A stretch of 64,000 nucleotides of DNA from an uncultured Gemmatimonadales bacterium (GCA_963851265.1 CAWKNZ010000001.1:128001-192000); one strand, 5' to 3'. Positions 9,001 to 24,000 are shown, counted from the first letter of the stretch. Numbers are program-made.

Positions 9001-12000
9001 GCACCTGCTCGATCACCAGGTCGTGCGACACGTGCGCCCGGGGCGGCTCGGGTATCACCCGGTCGGCCAGCCGCCGGCCCGCGACGAGCGCGAGGGTCAG
9101 CACCACACCCACCGCCCCGACGGCGAGCGCGAGCGCGGTGAGGCGACGCGTCCAGGGGTCGGTGGACCGGATCACCCCGCAGTATACCCCGACGTGACAC
9201 CACGACGTGCGGCGACCCCGCGGCCGCGCCCGCGACGCGCGGCGTCGACCTTGCTCGATCGGCGCGCCATGCCGACGCACTCCCCGCTCCGCCCTCCCGC
9301 TCCGACCGAATCGGACCCTGGCACGGTCGTCGACGCGGCCGCGCGCGTGGCCGTCGCGAGCGCGGTGTTCTCGGTCGTCCACAGTCTCCTCGCGAGCCAC
9401 CGCGCCAAGCGCACCGCCGAACGCGCACTCGGCGAACGGGTAGCCCGGGGCGGCTACCGCCTCGGGTACAACGCGATCGCCATGGGCATGACGCTCGGCC
9501 TCACGGCGTACGTGCTCCGCCGCCGCGGCCCGCTGGTCTACTCGCTCGACGGTCCCGCGGCAGTCCTCGTCCGCACCGCCCAACTCGGCGCACTCGGGGC
9601 CGCGTTCCGGGCGGGCATCGACGCCGGCTTCGCCGACCTGTCGGGCTTCGGCCCACTCTGGCGATTGGCCACCGGGGGACCGCTCGCGCCGATTCCCGAC
9701 GGTCAGGGCCCGTCGGAGCGCGGACCGGGCGAACCGACCCCCCACGGGCTGTTCACCCGGTCGCGCAACCCGCTGAACTTCTTCGTCATCCCGGTGCTCT
9801 GGCTCGCGCCGCGGGCGAGCGCGGGGCGGATCGGACTCAATCTCGTGTTCACCGCGTACTGCGTCGCGGGGTCATGGCACGCGAACCAGATGCTCCGGGC
9901 GAGACACGGGAAAGGGTGGGAAGGCTACGAGCAGGAGAAACCGCTGATGGTGCCGGCGTAGTCGCCGCGGTCCCGGTTGGCTGGATCGTCGGCCCGGGCG
10001 GGCGGCGCGACTACGCTCGGCGCTGACGGCCAGGGGAGAGGTACTGCGCTTCTCCCCACTCGAACGTCCTCCGCTCCGCGTAATAGTCCGGCCGCCACGG
10101 GATCCTCCCCCCCACGAACCCGACATGCCCGCCACGACGGTGGAACTCCACCGTGAGGCATGGGTTGACGTCGGCTACCCGTCGCACCTCGTCGAGCACG
10201 TCCGCCGGGAGAAACGGATCGTCTTCCGCGCTCAGCAGCAGCGTGGGGATGCGGATTCCCGCGAGGAAGCCGAGCGCGCTCGACCGGGCGTAGTAATCGG
10301 CCGCGTCGTTGAACCCGTGCACGGCCGCGGTGAGCACGTCGTCGAACTCCCACAGCGACCGGAGTCCCGCCAGCCGCTCCCGGTCCACCAGGTCCGGGTA
10401 GACCGCGAGTTTCTGTTCGACCTTACCCGTGAGCGACCGGAGGAAGTTGAGCTCGTAGATCCGCGAGAACCCGCGTCCCACGTGCCGGGACCCGCGCGCG
10501 AGATCGAACGGCACCGAGATCGCCACCGCCGCGCGCACGTTGGCCGGTACCGGATTTGGCGACGGCGCGCTCTGCTCCGGACCGCTCGGTCCGAGCGTCG
10601 GGTCGCCGCGCTCGCCGAGGTACTTGAGCAGCACGTTGCCCCCGAGCGAGACGCCGGCGAGCACGAGCGGGCGGTCCGGCTGCTCCGCCGCGATCCGCTC
10701 CACGACCAGCGCGAAGTCTGTCGTCTCGCCCGAGTGGTAGAAGCGGCGCTGCCGGTTCATCTCGCCGCCGCAGCTGCGGTGCACCAGCAGGTCCATCCCC
10801 CAGCCGCGCCGCCGTGACTGCGCGAACAGGCCCTGCACGTAGTGCGACCGTTCGCCGCCTTCGAGGCCGTGCAGCAGCAGCAGTCGCGGCGTCTCGCGCG
10901 CCGGCTCGAGGCGCACCACGTCGACGAAATCACCGTCCGGCGTGTCCCAGCGTTCCGTGCTGTAGCCTGGCGGACGGCGGCGGGCCAGGGTGCGCGAACT
11001 GCGCGGCTGACGGACGAACTTGCCGTACAGCGTTTGCGCGTGCGCGCCCGGCACCCACCACGCAGGGCGGTAACTCGGCGGCGGGACGACGATGGGCATG
11101 GCAGATTATACCCTCGCTGTCCGATGTCGTCTTCAACGCCCGGTTTCTGCCAGTGCTCGACACGCCGCCTACCCTCGCGATCGTCGCCGTCGCCGTCGCC
11201 GGCGCGGCGGCGCCAGCGGCCGTGTTGCACCTCGTACTCGCACACGCGATGCGGGCCCGCGGGCTACCCCGCTGGCGTGTGGCCGACACGCTGCTCGTGA
11301 GTCCCCTGCTCTTCCTCGCCCTGCTCACCGGTTTCGCCGCGCTCGCGCACGCGGTGGCCCGCGTGGCGGCCGACGCGGCGACCGGCCGGGCCACGCATGC
11401 CGATCTCTTCGGCTCGCTCGCCGTCGCGGCGGGCGCGTTCGTCGTGGCGGGGTTCGGCGCGCGCGCGGTCGGGAAGTTGTATTGACGGCGGTACTGCCGC
11501 CGCGTTCGGCCCCGCGCGCGATCCTCTTCGACTTCGGCGGCACGCTCGACGCCGACGGGGTGCCGACGGCGTCGCAGTTCCACGCCGCGTACGCGGCCGA
11601 GCGTGGAACCATCGATGCCGACGGATTCGCCGCCGCGTTCCGCACCTCCGACCATCAACTTGCCGCGCTCGCGCACATCGCCCGCCTCGGATATACCGAG
11701 ACCGTGGAGGCGCAGACCCGGCTCCTCGCCGCCCTCCTGCCCGACGCTGCGGCGGTCGACTGGACCTCGGTCGCCACGCGTGTGACCGCCGCGGCCCGCA
11801 CGATCGCGGCCCGCAACCGCCCCTTGCTCGCGACGCTCCGCGACGGCGCTCGGCTCGGCGTCGTGTCCAACTTCACCGGGAACGTCGATCGCTGCCTGGC
11901 CGAGCTCGGGCTCCTCGATCTGTTCGACACCGTGGCCGACTCCGCCGTCGTGGGCCAGGCGAAACCCGACCCCGCGCTATTCCAGGTGGCGCTCCGCGCG

Positions 12001-21000: not shown

Positions 21001-24000
21001 CCTCCCACGCGCCGTTGTACAGGTCGCGGATGCGCGTGATCTCGGCGTCGAAATTCTTCTTGTCGAACGGACGGACGACCACGCCGAAGCGCTCGCGCGC
21101 GAGGCGCTCGAAGTTGCGCAGGCGCTCCGGGATGTGGGGTGTCGCCTCCTCCTCGGTCGCGTTCGGCGGCACGCCGAGCGAGTCGGCCGAGAGCTCGTAG
21201 GCGAGCACGTCCTTGGCCTTGTGGAACCCCGCGCCCTCGATCAACTCCGCGTAGTACGGCGGGTTGTACGGCATCATGATGGACGGGTCGCGGTCGAACC
21301 CGTCGACGAGCAGCCCCCAATCCTCGTTGGACGAGAAGTTGGCCGGGCCGCGCATGACCGTGAGGCCGCGCTCGCGCAGCCAGTCGGCCGCCGCGTCGAG
21401 CAGCGCGCGTGCTACGTCGGGGCTGCGTTCGCACTCGAACAGCCCGAAGAACCCGACGGCCTCGTGATGCGTCTGTTCGTGCAGCCGGTTGCGGATCGCG
21501 GCCACGCGCCCGACGATCACGCCGGCCGAGTTGCGCGCGAGCAGCAGCTCCACCTCGGCGTGCGCGTGGAACGGGTGCTTCTTCGGATCGATGAGCGCGG
21601 CGACCTCGCCCTTGAGCGGGGGGACCCAGTGTGGCTCGGCGCGGTGCAGCCGGAAGGGCAGGTCGATGAACGCCCGCCTGTCGGCCGCACTGCGCACGGG
21701 CGTGATCTGAACGCGGGTCACGCGGCCGGTAGAGGGAGGAGATTCGAGCGACGTAGCCAAAACGATTCGGGTTTGAGTGCTCTCCCAATGTGCGCCGCGC
21801 TACCACGGCGCGCCATGCGCGCACCAGGCCTCGGGAGCAAACAAGCCACCAAGTCGCATTCGGAATGGTTCGTGCTCGCCCTCGCGTTCGGCGCGCGGCG
21901 GCACGGCGGGTCCAGATCGGCGTGGACGTCCACATGTCTGCACGACGTCGGTGCCCGTTCACCTCGAACGGGCGCCACGCGCGATTGGACGCTTGCGTAC
22001 ACTAGCGTACATGGCTCTTCCGACCCACATGACGACGTCGTCGGTTCCGACCCCCGCCACGACCGCCACCGCAGGCACCGTTCCCGCGCGCTGGACGGAC
22101 CTCGTGCTGCTCGCGCTCCGCATCGTCGTGGGGCTCATGTTCGCCTGCCACGGAGCACAGAAGCTCCTCGGCTGGTTTGGTGGCCCCGGGGGCAAGGGCG
22201 GGTCGGTGCCGCTGTTCACGCTCCCGGGCATCGCCGGCGTGCTCGAGCTCATCGGCGGGGCGCTGATCGTGGTCGGATTCTCGACGCGCGCGGTCGCGTT
22301 CGTGCTCGCCGGGGAGATGGCCGTGGCGTATCTCATGGCTCACGCCCCGCGCGGCTTCCTGCCGATCGTGAACCACGGCGAGCCGGCGGTGCTCTACTGC
22401 TTCCTGTTCCTGGCCCTGTGGGCGGTAGGTCCGGGCGCCTACAGCGTGGACGCGCGGCGCGGGCTCGCGCGCGGCTGAGACGCGCGCGGGCTGAGACGCG
22501 CGCGGGCTGACCCCGAGCGGGCCTGCCGTGAGCGCGGCGACCGGGACGTCAGGTGAGCAACAGCCGGGCGGCGAGAGCGACTCCCAGTGCCGGCGGCATC
22601 ACGACCGCCCCGGTCCTGAGAAAGCGCCAGAACCCCACGTTCTCGCCCTCGCGGCGGATGGCCGTGAGCCAGAGGACGGTCGCGAGCGAGCCGGTCACCG
22701 AGAGGTTGGGGCCGAGATCGACGCCGATCAGGAGGGCGTCGGTGACCTGCTGCGGCGGGTGCGCCCGCGCGAGCGTCGCGCTCGCGACGAGTCCCGCGGG
22801 CAGGTTGTTGGTCAGATTGCAGACGACCGCCAGCAGACCGCCCGCGCCCCACGCCGTCCCGTCCGGCGAGCGTTGCACGGCCGCGCGCAACGCGTCCGCC
22901 AGATCCCCGACGACTCCGGTGCGGTCCAGCGCTTCGACGAGGGCGAAGAGCCCCGCGACGAGCGGAAGCACCGCCCACGACACCTCGCGCACCAGCGGCA
23001 GCGGGGAGGTCCGCGTCCGCACGAGCACGGCGGCCGCGGTGAGCATCCCCAGCACGGCCGTCGGCAGGCCGAGCGGCCGGTCGAGCGCGGATACCGCGAG
23101 CAGCACCACCGCGGTCAGGACGATTCCGGCGAGCGCCGTCCAGCCCCCTGCCGACAGCGGCGGGCAGTCGAGGTCGCCCGCGCACGCGGTCCCGAGCCGC
23201 CGCCCCTCCACGAAGCGCAGCGCCGCATACGTGGCGACCACCGAGAGGGCGGAGGGGAGCGCGAACCCGGCCAGCCAGCGTCCCAACGGCGGCGTGTGGT
23301 TGCCGTAGAGCACGATGTTGGCGGGATTGGAGATCGGCAGCACGAAGCTCGCGGCGTTGGCGATGAACGCGCAGACGAACAGGTAGGGCAGGGGCTCGAC
23401 CCGCGCCTTTCTGGTCGCCGCGAACACCGCGGGGGTGAGCACGACGGCCGCCGCGTCGTTGGACAGAAAGGCGGTGATCACGGTGCCCACCGCGTAGACG
23501 AGCAGGAAGAGCCGCGTCGGCGACCGGTGCGCCGCATTCACGGCGAGTGCCGCGACGGTGTCGAACAGCCCCTCGCGCCGCGCGACCTCCGACAGGAGCA
23601 TCATCCCGACGAGGAAGAGATACACGTCGAGGCCCCGGGCCACGCCGGCGGCGGCGGCGCTGAGCGGCAGGAGTCCGAGCGCGACGAGCAGCACCGCGCC
23701 CGAGACGGCCCACACGGCTTCGGGCAGCTGGAATGGACGGACGATGACGCCGGCGGTGGCGAGCCCCGCGAGCCCCCATGTGAGTTCGCGACCCACGGCC
23801 GGCGTCACGCCGGGGCAGAGCTGGAGCACGCCCGGGCACCCCGCACCGTCGTCGGGGCGAGGGCGCGCGGCGCGCACGTGTGGGGTCGGATCGTCAGCGG
23901 CTTCACGCTCGGTTCACGAACAGATTGAGATCGACCCGGCGGTGGATCGAGTGGCGCCCCGGGCGGATCGCGGCGGACCACCGCCCGGCCGCGCTAACTT

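Follow-up and report, generated by a model that had tools for sequence, protein, structure and literature searches.

What does a conserved, probable head-group gene cluster in a soil bacterium of the Gemmatimonadales produce, and which reaction is catalysed by the ATP-grasp protein that it encodes? We addressed both questions in a 64,000-nucleotide stretch (the window) of an uncultured member's genome (GCA_963851265.1, CAWKNZ010000001.1:128001-192000). A genome-wide survey's note had proposed that the cluster makes an amino-inositol phosphoceramide; its observations are partly confirmed and its interpretation is partly supported. The cluster very probably encodes a lipid head-group pathway. 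Its substrates and the order of its steps are those that we infer from the gene set laid out below.

Gene content and conservation of the cluster

11482-12195, + strand: HAD-family hydrolase, probably an inositol-phosphate phosphatase (PF00702, E 2.9e-20)
12230-12982, + strand: nucleotidyltransferase (NTP transferase), predicted cyclitol-phosphate cytidylyltransferase (PF12804)
13148-14164, + strand: ATP-grasp enzyme, uncharacterised family; putative kinase of a cyclitol or cyclitol phosphate
14191-15585, + strand: putative inosose aminotransferase, class III and PLP-dependent, from a tight subfamily (PF00202, E 3e-93)
15589-16587, + strand: CDP-alcohol phosphotransferase (CDP-PT), predicted to transfer phospho-cyclitol to a lipid alcohol (PF01066)
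16574-17659, + strand: Gfo/Idh/MocA NAD-dependent dehydrogenase, which would oxidise a hydroxyl of the cyclitol ahead of transamination (PF01408, PF22725)
17731-19440, + strand: M20 amidohydrolase, 569 aa, with an N-terminal hydrophobic segment (TIGR01891, above cut-off)
19465-20541, + strand: PF03706 (LPG-synthase TM/HpnL-like) membrane protein, possible flippase
20558-21721, - strand: GNAT-fold protein of the bacterial ceramide synthase/YghO family (cerS-like), convergent (PF00583)

The seven genes named in the survey's note are intact in the window (GC3 0.90–0.97), the first of them having a TTG start and overlapping an upstream ORF. They had been described as one co-oriented run, but the M20 amidohydrolase gene breaks it between the dehydrogenase and PF03706 genes. 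This gene was not found in the 11 family loci examined, one relative has a CocE/NonD hydrolase in its place, and it is probably a genome-specific insertion outside the pathway. The cerS-like gene adjoins the cluster as claimed, but on the minus strand and convergently, and hence outside the operon here. The conserved gene order was reproduced on separate samples: of 27 long Gemmatimonadota-type loci, 26 contain all seven genes (and 12 contain cerS), while 10 of the 11 other family genomes share the order and the remaining locus ends at a contig edge. Clusters with the aminotransferase and dehydrogenase were found in several phyla. The PF03706 gene occurs in 26/27 Gemmatimonadota-type loci, 20/28 other long loci and 9/20 Bacteroidales loci.

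In the HAD enzyme, motif I reads D-F-G-G-T-L-D and is missing the usual second Asp; its invariant residues are D17, G19, G20, T21, D23, K161, D186 and D191. The nucleotidyltransferase profile spans the IPCT structures 2xme, 4jd0 and 4mnd almost end to end (E 8e-14 to 4e-13), slightly outscored by sugar-1-phosphate nucleotidyltransferases. The CDP-PT has invariant D79, D82, G83, A86, R87, G96 and D100, and its best PDB profile match is AF2299 (E 3e-18), with PIP synthases at 1e-10. A soluble phosphodiester solute (di-myo-inositol phosphate-like) or a surface-polymer decoration, with no lipid involved, would agree with the matches of these two enzymes to IPCT and DIPP synthase and with the second CDP-PT present in 16 of 27 Gemmatimonadota-type loci. 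We regard such a product as very improbable, given the tight linkage with spt, cerS, cerR, PAP2 and fatty-acid hydroxylase genes and the inositol lipids of species that have only this cluster (PMC9246714).

A lipid product is reported for species with the putative alternative cluster of Bacteroidetes (B. vulgatus and Prevotella; Heaver et al., 2022; PMC9246714), which resembles the present one in its NTP transferase, CDP-PT, HAD and PF03706 genes; our cluster-gene profiles retrieve Bacteroidales NTP transferase, CDP-PT and HAD clusters at high scores. The order there is NTP, ATP-grasp, CDP-PT, LPG, HAD, MIPS. In 20 Bacteroidales loci, the first three stood in this order in all 20, MIPS was present in 18, and an aminotransferase or dehydrogenase in none; across 301 Bacteroidales genomes, the ATP-grasp and nucleotidyltransferase genes co-occur (38/38 and 38/39) and are often fused. 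The host cluster, in contrast, adds a dehydrogenase, an aminotransferase and a linkage to ceramide genes, and the two MIPS genes of the genome both lie on contig C2, with none at the cluster. The survey's view that it extends the Bacteroidetes cluster by the dehydrogenase and aminotransferase has gained support. B. vulgatus and P. veroralis produce plain PI-DHC, for which PI-DAG was proposed as the intermediate and the HAD protein as PI-DHC synthase (PMC9246714). The host HAD protein, in which we looked for a hydrophobic segment and found none, instead looks soluble. The published proposal includes no ATP-grasp step and its main text does not mention one (PMC9246714); judging from gene spacing, BVU_RS13100 would be the ATP-grasp gene, with BVU_RS13095, 13105 and 13115 fitting the Bacteroidales order.

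Fold and catalytic residues of the ATP-grasp protein

As the survey's note had stated, the ATP-grasp protein has no Pfam match, and none was found in NCBIfam; NCBI or UniRef already labels some homologues (P0224, P0232, P0238) 'ATP-grasp domain-containing protein'. The confident ATP-grasp model was likewise reproduced with AlphaFold (pLDDT 94.5, fold Z 21.7). The note had further argued for an ITPK-like kinase on the ground that ITPK was the best profile match, and this ground fails: among PDB profiles the ligase PsnB (7drm, E 7.2e-8) ranks before AtITPK4 (1.8e-6), and RimK (3e-4) before HsITPK1 (6e-4). Fold searches place LysX/RimK ahead of ITPK, with ArgX at Z 21.7 and RimK at 21.0 against 16–17.5 (~250 residues) for ITPKs, and the RimK/LysX/PsnB ligases are nearest in overall fold and size (Z 21–22). 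RimK-like and Asgard ITPK clusters tie at 0.96 in the Atlas. Weak Pfam matches among 94 homologues are to RimK in 13 and to ITPK (PF05770) in 11 (best PF05770 E 3e-5), with no family-level PF05770 match for the window protein, and hhalign of the family against RimK-family proteins returns a probability of 98. Over the whole protein, ligases equal or surpass ITPKs in profile and fold similarity. Membership of the ITPK family was rejected; the resemblance is below Pfam level, and identity in structural alignments is 13–16%.

The residues that bear on catalysis are encoded at the following positions:

13373-13375, + strand: Gln76
13748-13750, + strand: Lys201
13937-13939, + strand: Asp264
13943-13945, + strand: Asn266

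Lys201 and the D264-x-N266 motif are invariant in 94/94 homologues. They align with KFY..DLN of AtITPK4, which has both KFY and DLNxxPSF in common with the family, and with DIN of HsITPK1; the corresponding residues are R and ExN in RimK, in PsnB and in 9/9 controls of the RimK family drawn from family genomes. In place of the Arg, ExN and glycine loop (GSxG) of the ligases, the family has Lys, DxN and RGDVHA. The lysine of AtITPK4 KFY occupies, we presume, the position of HsITPK1 K199. That residue is a conserved inositol-phosphate contact (PMC6900528), and the ITPKs (HsITPK1, EhITPK1, AtITPK4, Asgard LcIK) are similar to the host enzyme in ATP-grasp fold, in the Lys at the K199 position and in the DxN metal motif. 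The RimK/LysX amide-ligase signature, in which that Arg marks the amide-ligase clade (PMC4431377), was rejected for this family: in a 368-row alignment K stands in 357 rows and R in 2, D in 353 rows and E in none, the remainder being nearly all gaps. Judged by spacing, an Asp and a variable residue would stand in the family where HsITPK1 has H167 and R212. In Asgard lineages, genes for ITPK flank those for MIPS (PMC6900528); the host enzyme would differ from the ITPKs in being coupled to CDP activation, not InsP6 synthesis. Free inositol is not a substrate of characterised ITPK1s, whereas the proposed kinase step requires phosphorylation of its amino form.

All 13 long forms of the protein are fusions of the ATP-grasp domain to the nucleotidyltransferase, one of them additionally fused to the CDP-PT, and another fused protein has the arrangement HAD-NTP-ATP-grasp. 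Because of its catalytic residues, fusions and gene content, and not of overall similarity, the enzyme is probably a kinase, and the survey's kinase idea is plausible. An amide or ester ligase acting in the same pathway, which would attach an amino acid, or some small acid, either to the head group or to a partner protein, is unlikely. ATP-grasp enzymes are mostly ligases, the fold and profile rankings put ligases first, hhalign matches RimK-family proteins, and DxN is known outside kinases (CDC123, and another family in L107/L109/L113). Such a function is nevertheless hard to reconcile with the replaced Arg and GSxG loop, with the in-line nucleotidyltransferase fusions, with the loci having no recurrent carboxylate donor gene, or with retention of the gene in Bacteroidales clusters that form no amine and are reported to yield unmodified PI-DHC.

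Predicted inositol supply and amination, and residue 76

The aminotransferase is 47–77% identical across phyla, with invariant K293 and a serine-rich loop S320–S325 (numbered from 14194), and its best PDB matches are generic GABA and putrescine aminotransferases. The dehydrogenase has invariant EKP, D198 and H202; its top PDB matches are sugar dehydrogenases, which do not fix the substrate. PDB profile matches of these two enzymes and the nucleotidyltransferase included no substrate-defining close homologue. Aminotransferase and dehydrogenase genes are both present or both absent in 28/28 long loci (one aminotransferase is frameshifted), and their orthologues were not found genome-wide in the tested genomes with clusters of the minus type (5 and 2). 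MIPS lies beside clusters with both genes in 9/28 other-phylum long loci, in L017 and in L238/L239/L241/L245, and among the 40 genomes of other phyla that carry the ATP-grasp gene, 34 contain it.

Residue 76 of the ATP-grasp protein is Q or E in 88/88 copies with an adjoining aminotransferase (71/71 and 17/17) and R in 107/109 copies without one (26/26, 80/80 and one paralogue); the 80 metagenome R76 loci were drawn with an R-type query and represent 40 clusters. Both exceptions have E76, L230 having an aminotransferase elsewhere in its genome and L246 lying at a contig end. In L233, an R76 paralogue lies 6 kb from the aminotransferase-bearing copy. The residue changed at least three times on the tree (starred branches, column 76 removed); it was chosen among seven candidate columns, and its independent changes are few. 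This correlation is new here, and since the switch at residue 76 tracks the aminotransferase, it suggests that the enzyme handles an aminated cyclitol.

An amino-sugar product, with the two enzymes using a sugar, another polyol or a nucleotide-linked form, is quite improbable. It would suit the sugar dehydrogenases and sugar-1-phosphate enzymes among the top matches, and MIPS lies outside the locus and was not found in 6/40 genomes, some of them incomplete. However, two MIPS subtypes occur inside or beside amino-type clusters, close orthologues are found in plus and minus clusters within Ignavibacteria, and the acceptor step falls to a CDP-alcohol transferase rather than a glycosyltransferase. 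The head group is very likely inositol-derived, and retention of the amine in the product appears likely; the survey's amino-inositol idea gained support from the MIPS genes beside such clusters in several phyla and from the residue-76 switch. A module likened to that of the host by description only is Hyg18/Hyg25/Hyg17/Hyg8, in which Hyg8 is presumably a class III aminotransferase. For hygromycin A, MIPS, a phosphatase, a Gfo-type PF01408 dehydrogenase and an aminotransferase convert inositol to inosamine (PMC10949010); that module supplies an antibiotic building block and has no kinase, CDP or lipid step.

Ceramide linkage and the predicted route

The survey's placement of the spt-like, PAP2 and cerR-like genes at C2:269929-273976 is confirmed. 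The spt-like protein best matches SerpalmtaseCFB (463.7 bits, cut-off 640; BioF 390), and the cerR-like protein is an epimerase/SDR encoded near spt, with HpnA as best model, below cut-off. The cerS-like protein is 39.5% identical to a Roseomonas protein, whose locus has a CDP-alcohol transferase, LptF/G and a sterol desaturase, and 35% identical to E. coli YghO of the same family. Twelve of 151 family genomes, from only five genera, contain the ATP-grasp gene, and all 12 carry spt and cerS-like genes, against backgrounds of 24 for spt and 39 for cerS, which strengthens the tie that the survey had drawn. The cerS-like gene adjoins spt in 21/24 spt-positive family genomes, though not in the host; it is co-oriented upstream of the cluster in 3/11 family loci, and a cerR-like gene lies beside it in 8/11. 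It stands at either cluster end across different genera and in Verrucomicrobia, and therefore the link has been kept through rearrangement. In Caulobacter, spt/bCerS/cerR with cpgABC (PMC9393093, PMC11087976) similarly set a ceramide core beside head-group genes including a CDP-alcohol transferase; there CpgB phosphorylates the lipid and phosphoglycerate forms the head group, whereas in the host a soluble head group would be activated.

The head group might instead be carried by diacylglycerol or an ether lipid only, with the ceramide genes as mere neighbours in a lipid island. The cerS gene is convergent, spt and cerR lie on another contig, and 5/40 other-phylum genomes with the ATP-grasp gene, including that of isolate locus L081, gave no cerS-like match. 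CDP-alcohol phosphotransferases usually take glycerolipids. The PI-DAG intermediate of Heaver et al. points the same way (PMC9246714). This remains fairly improbable against the 12/12 co-occurrence, the 0/127 spt-negative family genomes with the cluster's ATP-grasp gene, and a cerS link that survives rearrangement. A ceramide anchor is reasonably likely in the host genome, though, with those five genomes, not obligatory.

Taken as a whole, a kinase, CDP-activation and lipid-transfer route that places amino-inositol phosphate on ceramide and/or diacylglycerol is plausible, at slightly short of an even chance. It would be a Kennedy-type route (kinase, cytidylyltransferase, phosphotransferase) to an amino-deoxy-inositol phosphate head group. 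MIPS encoded elsewhere in the genome would form inositol-3-phosphate, from which the HAD enzyme would release inositol; the dehydrogenase would oxidise one hydroxyl, where the aminotransferase would install the amine. The amino-inositol would then be phosphorylated by the ATP-grasp enzyme and converted by the nucleotidyltransferase to its CDP derivative. The CDP-PT would attach the head group to (dihydro)ceramide at its C1 hydroxyl or, alternatively, first to diacylglycerol, from which the Aur1-like PAP2 would pass it to ceramide, and the PF03706 protein may flip the lipid. In Bacteroidales, without the amination step, the Arg76 kinase would place a phosphate on inositol where CDP activation needs it; its substrate may be inositol-3-phosphate, with the HAD enzyme then stripping the 3-phosphate.

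More speculatively, and rather doubtfully as a joint reading, bacterial ATP-grasp cyclitol kinases could form a widespread family, with catalytic residues common to eukaryotic and Asgard ITPKs, that performs the missing CDP-inositol step in gut Bacteroidales and was retuned by Arg to Gln/Glu to amino-inositol in Gemmatimonadota, Verrucomicrobia, Ignavibacteria and deltaproteobacteria-like lineages, yielding a zwitterionic amino-inositol phosphoceramide. If so, mass spectrometry would misread this lipid as a hexosamine-phosphate lipid, and the predicted ATP-grasp step would be one that the published pathway proposal is missing. The host genome also contains a candidate second, BT-like route, with a PIP-synthase-like gene (152 bits, cut-off 170) adjoining MIPS.

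Composition and conservation of the probable head-group cluster

The genome-wide survey's note described seven co-oriented genes abutting a ceramide synthase gene. These genes encode a HAD protein, an NTP transferase, an ATP-grasp protein, a class-III aminotransferase, a CDP-alcohol phosphotransferase (CDP-PT), a Gfo/Idh/MocA dehydrogenase and a PF03706 (LPG) membrane protein, and all seven were found intact on the plus strand, with intergenic gaps of -14 to 165 bases. The run is split by an M20 amidohydrolase gene (17731-19440), and the cerS-like gene, encoded on the minus strand, points towards the operon and ends 16 bases short of its last gene. 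Contig C2 of the same genome carries the spt-like, PAP2 and cerR-like genes, as previously noted. The M20 gene was not found in 11 other loci of the family Gemmatimonadaceae, one of which carries a CocE/NonD hydrolase gene at the same place; its position therefore looks like an insertion site, and it was rejected as a pathway member. A promoter and terminator scan gave a result at chance level. A short membrane-protein ORF (11078-11485, plus strand), with three hydrophobic stretches, runs 4 bases into the start of the HAD gene. Where this ORF truly begins is uncertain, no Pfam match was found for it, and a similar ORF precedes the HAD gene in locus L124.

Conservation was assessed in the best 80 of 596 confirmed loci in the genome collection (40 Gemmatimonadota-type and 40 other), counting only loci whose flanks extended at least 1.6 kb upstream and 4.5 kb downstream, as they did in 27/40 and 28/40, respectively. 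Within these best 80 of 596, the conservation claimed for the seven genes was borne out, with all seven present in 26 of the 27 Gemmatimonadota-type loci, together with cerS in 12, spt in 11 and PAP2 in nine. The 28 qualifying other loci carried HAD (28/28), NTP transferase (27/28), CDP-PT (28/28; loose threshold), dehydrogenase (24/28), aminotransferase (23/28, plus one frameshifted), MIPS (13/28) and cerS (7/28) genes. Matches to cerS and MIPS were present in 35 and 34, respectively, of 40 other-phylum genomes, which include one flagged as unpublished (G166, locus L061). Among 151 family genomes (four flagged as unpublished: G007, G033, G034 and G134), 12 carry the ATP-grasp orthologue, 24 an spt-like gene and 39 a cerS-like gene. 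All 12 ATP-grasp-bearing genomes, which cover only five genera, have both spt and cerS. In 11 family loci, cerS lies downstream and convergent in seven and upstream and co-oriented in three, while one contig ends early. No ATP-grasp match was found in plasmids.

The cluster is real and conserved; it is a variant, as yet uncharacterised, of a pathway known from prediction, and its kinase step is a hypothesis. Its core had been predicted in 2022, and a 2023 review still calls that core uncharacterised (PMC10191378).

Other genes accompany the cluster. An unannotated 161-aa protein and a second CDP-alcohol phosphotransferase (L010:15024-15509, L016:7087-7689) occur with it in 16-17 of the 27 Gemmatimonadota-type loci (from the best 80 of 596) and in three Ignavibacteria-type loci, and were not found in the window's genome. 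Lipid-transport genes MlaE/MlaF/MlaD sit inside the Ignavibacteria cluster, between the NTP transferase and ATP-grasp genes (L049, L052, L053, L057 and L058).

Probable inositol supply, amine and lipid anchor

MIPS, responsible for inositol-3-phosphate synthesis, adjoins clusters with both aminotransferase and dehydrogenase in 9 of the 28 other-phylum loci (from the best 80 of 596) and in L017, L238, L239, L241 and L245, with two MIPS subtypes in all. Its presence in 137 of the 151 family genomes suggests that inositol phospholipids are common in the family. In the window's genome, a PIP-synthase-like gene lies directly before MIPS at L004:7485-9626 (genome G000, contig C2, about 992484-994625). 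Elsewhere in it, a second MIPS (L005:8480-12385) shares a cluster with genes for an HD protein and a TIM barrel of sugar-isomerase type. A fatty-acid hydroxylase gene lies nearby, and its homologues are found within the Verrucomicrobia version of the head-group cluster.

Hygromycin A biosynthesis arrives at an inosamine by the same logic of four steps, with MIPS, a phosphatase, a dehydrogenase and an aminotransferase (PMC10949010). Five genomes with minus loci (without the aminotransferase) have only generic aminotransferases, scoring at most 225 bits against ~640-800 for intact orthologues. In two genomes with plus loci (with the aminotransferase) that lack an adjacent dehydrogenase, another locus holds a probable orthologue, which scores 280-292 bits where the matches in two minus genomes reach 133-150. 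The closest homologues of both enzymes are too distant to fix substrate or position.

The family of the cerS-like protein includes E. coli YghO (35% identity), so that identity alone proves little; adjacency to spt, observed in 21 of the 24 family genomes that have an spt-like gene, is better evidence than sequence identity. No PDB sequence match was found for this protein, and the Spt score was under the NCBIfam cut-off. The Caulobacter ceramide pathway is described in PMC9393093 and PMC11087976. Among solved structures, CDP-PT is closest to AF2299. The head group may be transferred straight to ceramide, or it may pass through diacylglycerol and then PAP2. Glycerolipid anchors in other lineages are suggested by the five genomes in which no cerS-like match was found, among them that of the named isolate with locus L081. 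Two GT4 glycosyltransferases adjoin spt (L001:3034-4665, 6708-7919), possibly for glycosphingolipids.

If this reading is true, the product would be a new sphingolipid head group, and sphingolipids would be predicted in ~1/6 of the genomes sampled from this Gemmatimonadota family (24/151). Without the amine the head group would be anionic; with it, the charge would be neutralised, which, to extrapolate from published results with LL-37 and colistin, could affect cationic-peptide resistance. Our literature search, which covered few subscription papers, found no report of an amino-inositol sphingolipid and, including the consulted part of PMC11334938, none of Gemmatimonadota sphingolipids, though species tables in the original bCerS paper may list the phylum.

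Kinase or ligase activity of the ATP-grasp enzyme

An alternative route to PI-DHC that runs through NTP transferase, CDP-PT and HAD was put forward by Heaver et al.; the text consulted makes no mention of the ATP-grasp gene (PMC9246714), and our literature search found no report of such a step in this route. Across 301 genomes from the order of genome G189 (Bacteroidales by record name), 38 carry the ATP-grasp gene and 39 the NTP transferase that matches, and 38 have both. All 20 loci examined from these 38 genomes have the order NTP transferase, ATP-grasp, CDP-PT, and 18 have MIPS; in three, another gene also occupies the gap holding the ATP-grasp gene. Neither aminotransferase nor dehydrogenase was found in the 20. 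The order NTP transferase, ATP-grasp, CDP-PT, LPG, HAD agrees with published tags 13095, 13105 and 13115; judging from the spacing, BVU tag 13100 would be the ATP-grasp gene. Each of the 13 long ATP-grasp forms found is a fusion with the NTP transferase, in one case with CDP-PT as well, and one further protein joins HAD, NTP transferase and ATP-grasp. If correct, the ATP-grasp step would be a missing step in the proposed inositol-sphingolipid route of common gut Bacteroidales.

An inositol-phosphate kinase (ITPK) had been named as the enzyme's best match, which we could not reproduce. A 94-sequence profile searched against the PDB placed PsnB first (7.2e-8) and AtITPK4 second (1.8e-6), followed by RimK and HsITPK1, with AtITPK4 giving the best single stretch. 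The structure model (pLDDT 94.5) matched ArgX (Z 21.7, rmsd 2.9, 254 aligned) above EhITPK1 (Z 17.5, rmsd 3.5, 243 aligned). RimK-like and Asgard ITPK clusters tied in the Atlas, and a single-sequence PDB search reached no better than E 0.12, to RimK. Overall similarity leaves kinase versus ligase undecided, while the aligned catalytic positions point the other way and would favour a kinase: the family has Lys201 and Asp264-x-Asn266, matching ITPKs in the profile alignment, whereas RimK-family controls retain Arg and ExN. DxN by itself is not diagnostic, as it also occurs in CDC123 and in the family at L107, L109 and L113.

The strongest argument for a kinase is gene logic, as the enzyme is retained in amine-free clusters, whose hosts yield plain PI-DHC, and is fused to the activating enzyme. 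We consider it probably a kinase, which would make it a bacterial ATP-grasp kinase with ITPK-related chemistry, but it does not belong to the ITPK family. Two findings count against a simple step order: free inositol is not a substrate of the characterised ITPK1s (PMC6900528), and AtITPK4 did not use monophosphates (PMC7614388).

Other bacterial ITPK-like proteins may exist besides this family. One bacterial Atlas cluster of 207 members, commonest in Actinomycetota, has PF05770 in 62%. A second unannotated ATP-grasp-like family, ending in D-x-N-K-T-P, occurs in family genomes (L113:679-1758, L109:1381-2427, L107:325-1767); no NCBIfam match was found for the two members tested. PMC7614388 describes an N-terminal HAD-like domain in AtITPK4 (P0048; PDB 7pup), the closest match among ITPKs; this echoes the HAD/ATP-grasp pairing and may be convergence.

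Residue 76 and the aminotransferase

Comparison of four proteins between 72 plus and 26 minus loci (out of 100, with L039 and L059 assignable to neither set) yielded seven candidate columns. Position 76 of the ATP-grasp protein is Gln/Glu in 71/71 plus loci and Arg in 26/26 minus loci. NTP transferase sites T181 and L210 and HAD sites D25 and N112 were rejected as amine trackers: they follow phylogeny and fail within Ignavibacteria, where both minus members still have T and L. ATP-grasp 97 and NTP transferase 134 are the remaining candidates.

Out of sample, copies directly before an aminotransferase had Gln (nine) or Glu (eight) in 17/17 cases. Of three copies not so placed, a paralogue in L233 had Arg although it branches within a Glu clade. 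The other two had Glu: the copy at L230, where the aminotransferase is at another locus of the genome, and the copy at L246, at a contig end. Metagenome loci had Arg76 in 80/80 (40 clusters), although the query was Arg-type, so that only enzyme absence is a test; no aminotransferase or dehydrogenase was found in them, and 62 had >2.5 kb downstream.

In the N-terminal domain, position 76 comes just after the third strand, beside the loop that in RimK-family proteins bears an invariant Arg. Judging from topology, this loop probably faces the substrate, like K59 of HsITPK1. A substrate that acquires an ammonium group would be expected to bring about an Arg to Gln/Glu swap, so that the ATP-grasp enzyme would act after transamination.

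An earlier, narrower tree needed one change at residue 76 (support 55), but wider sampling forced three: a quick tree of 55 rows, with column 76 removed, needs five changes, three of them forced by starred branches. The L233 paralogues (6488-7321 and 12449-13279) lie 6 kb apart with a radical-SAM-like gene in between; the Arg76 copy follows HAD-NTP transferase and the Glu76 copy precedes the aminotransferase.
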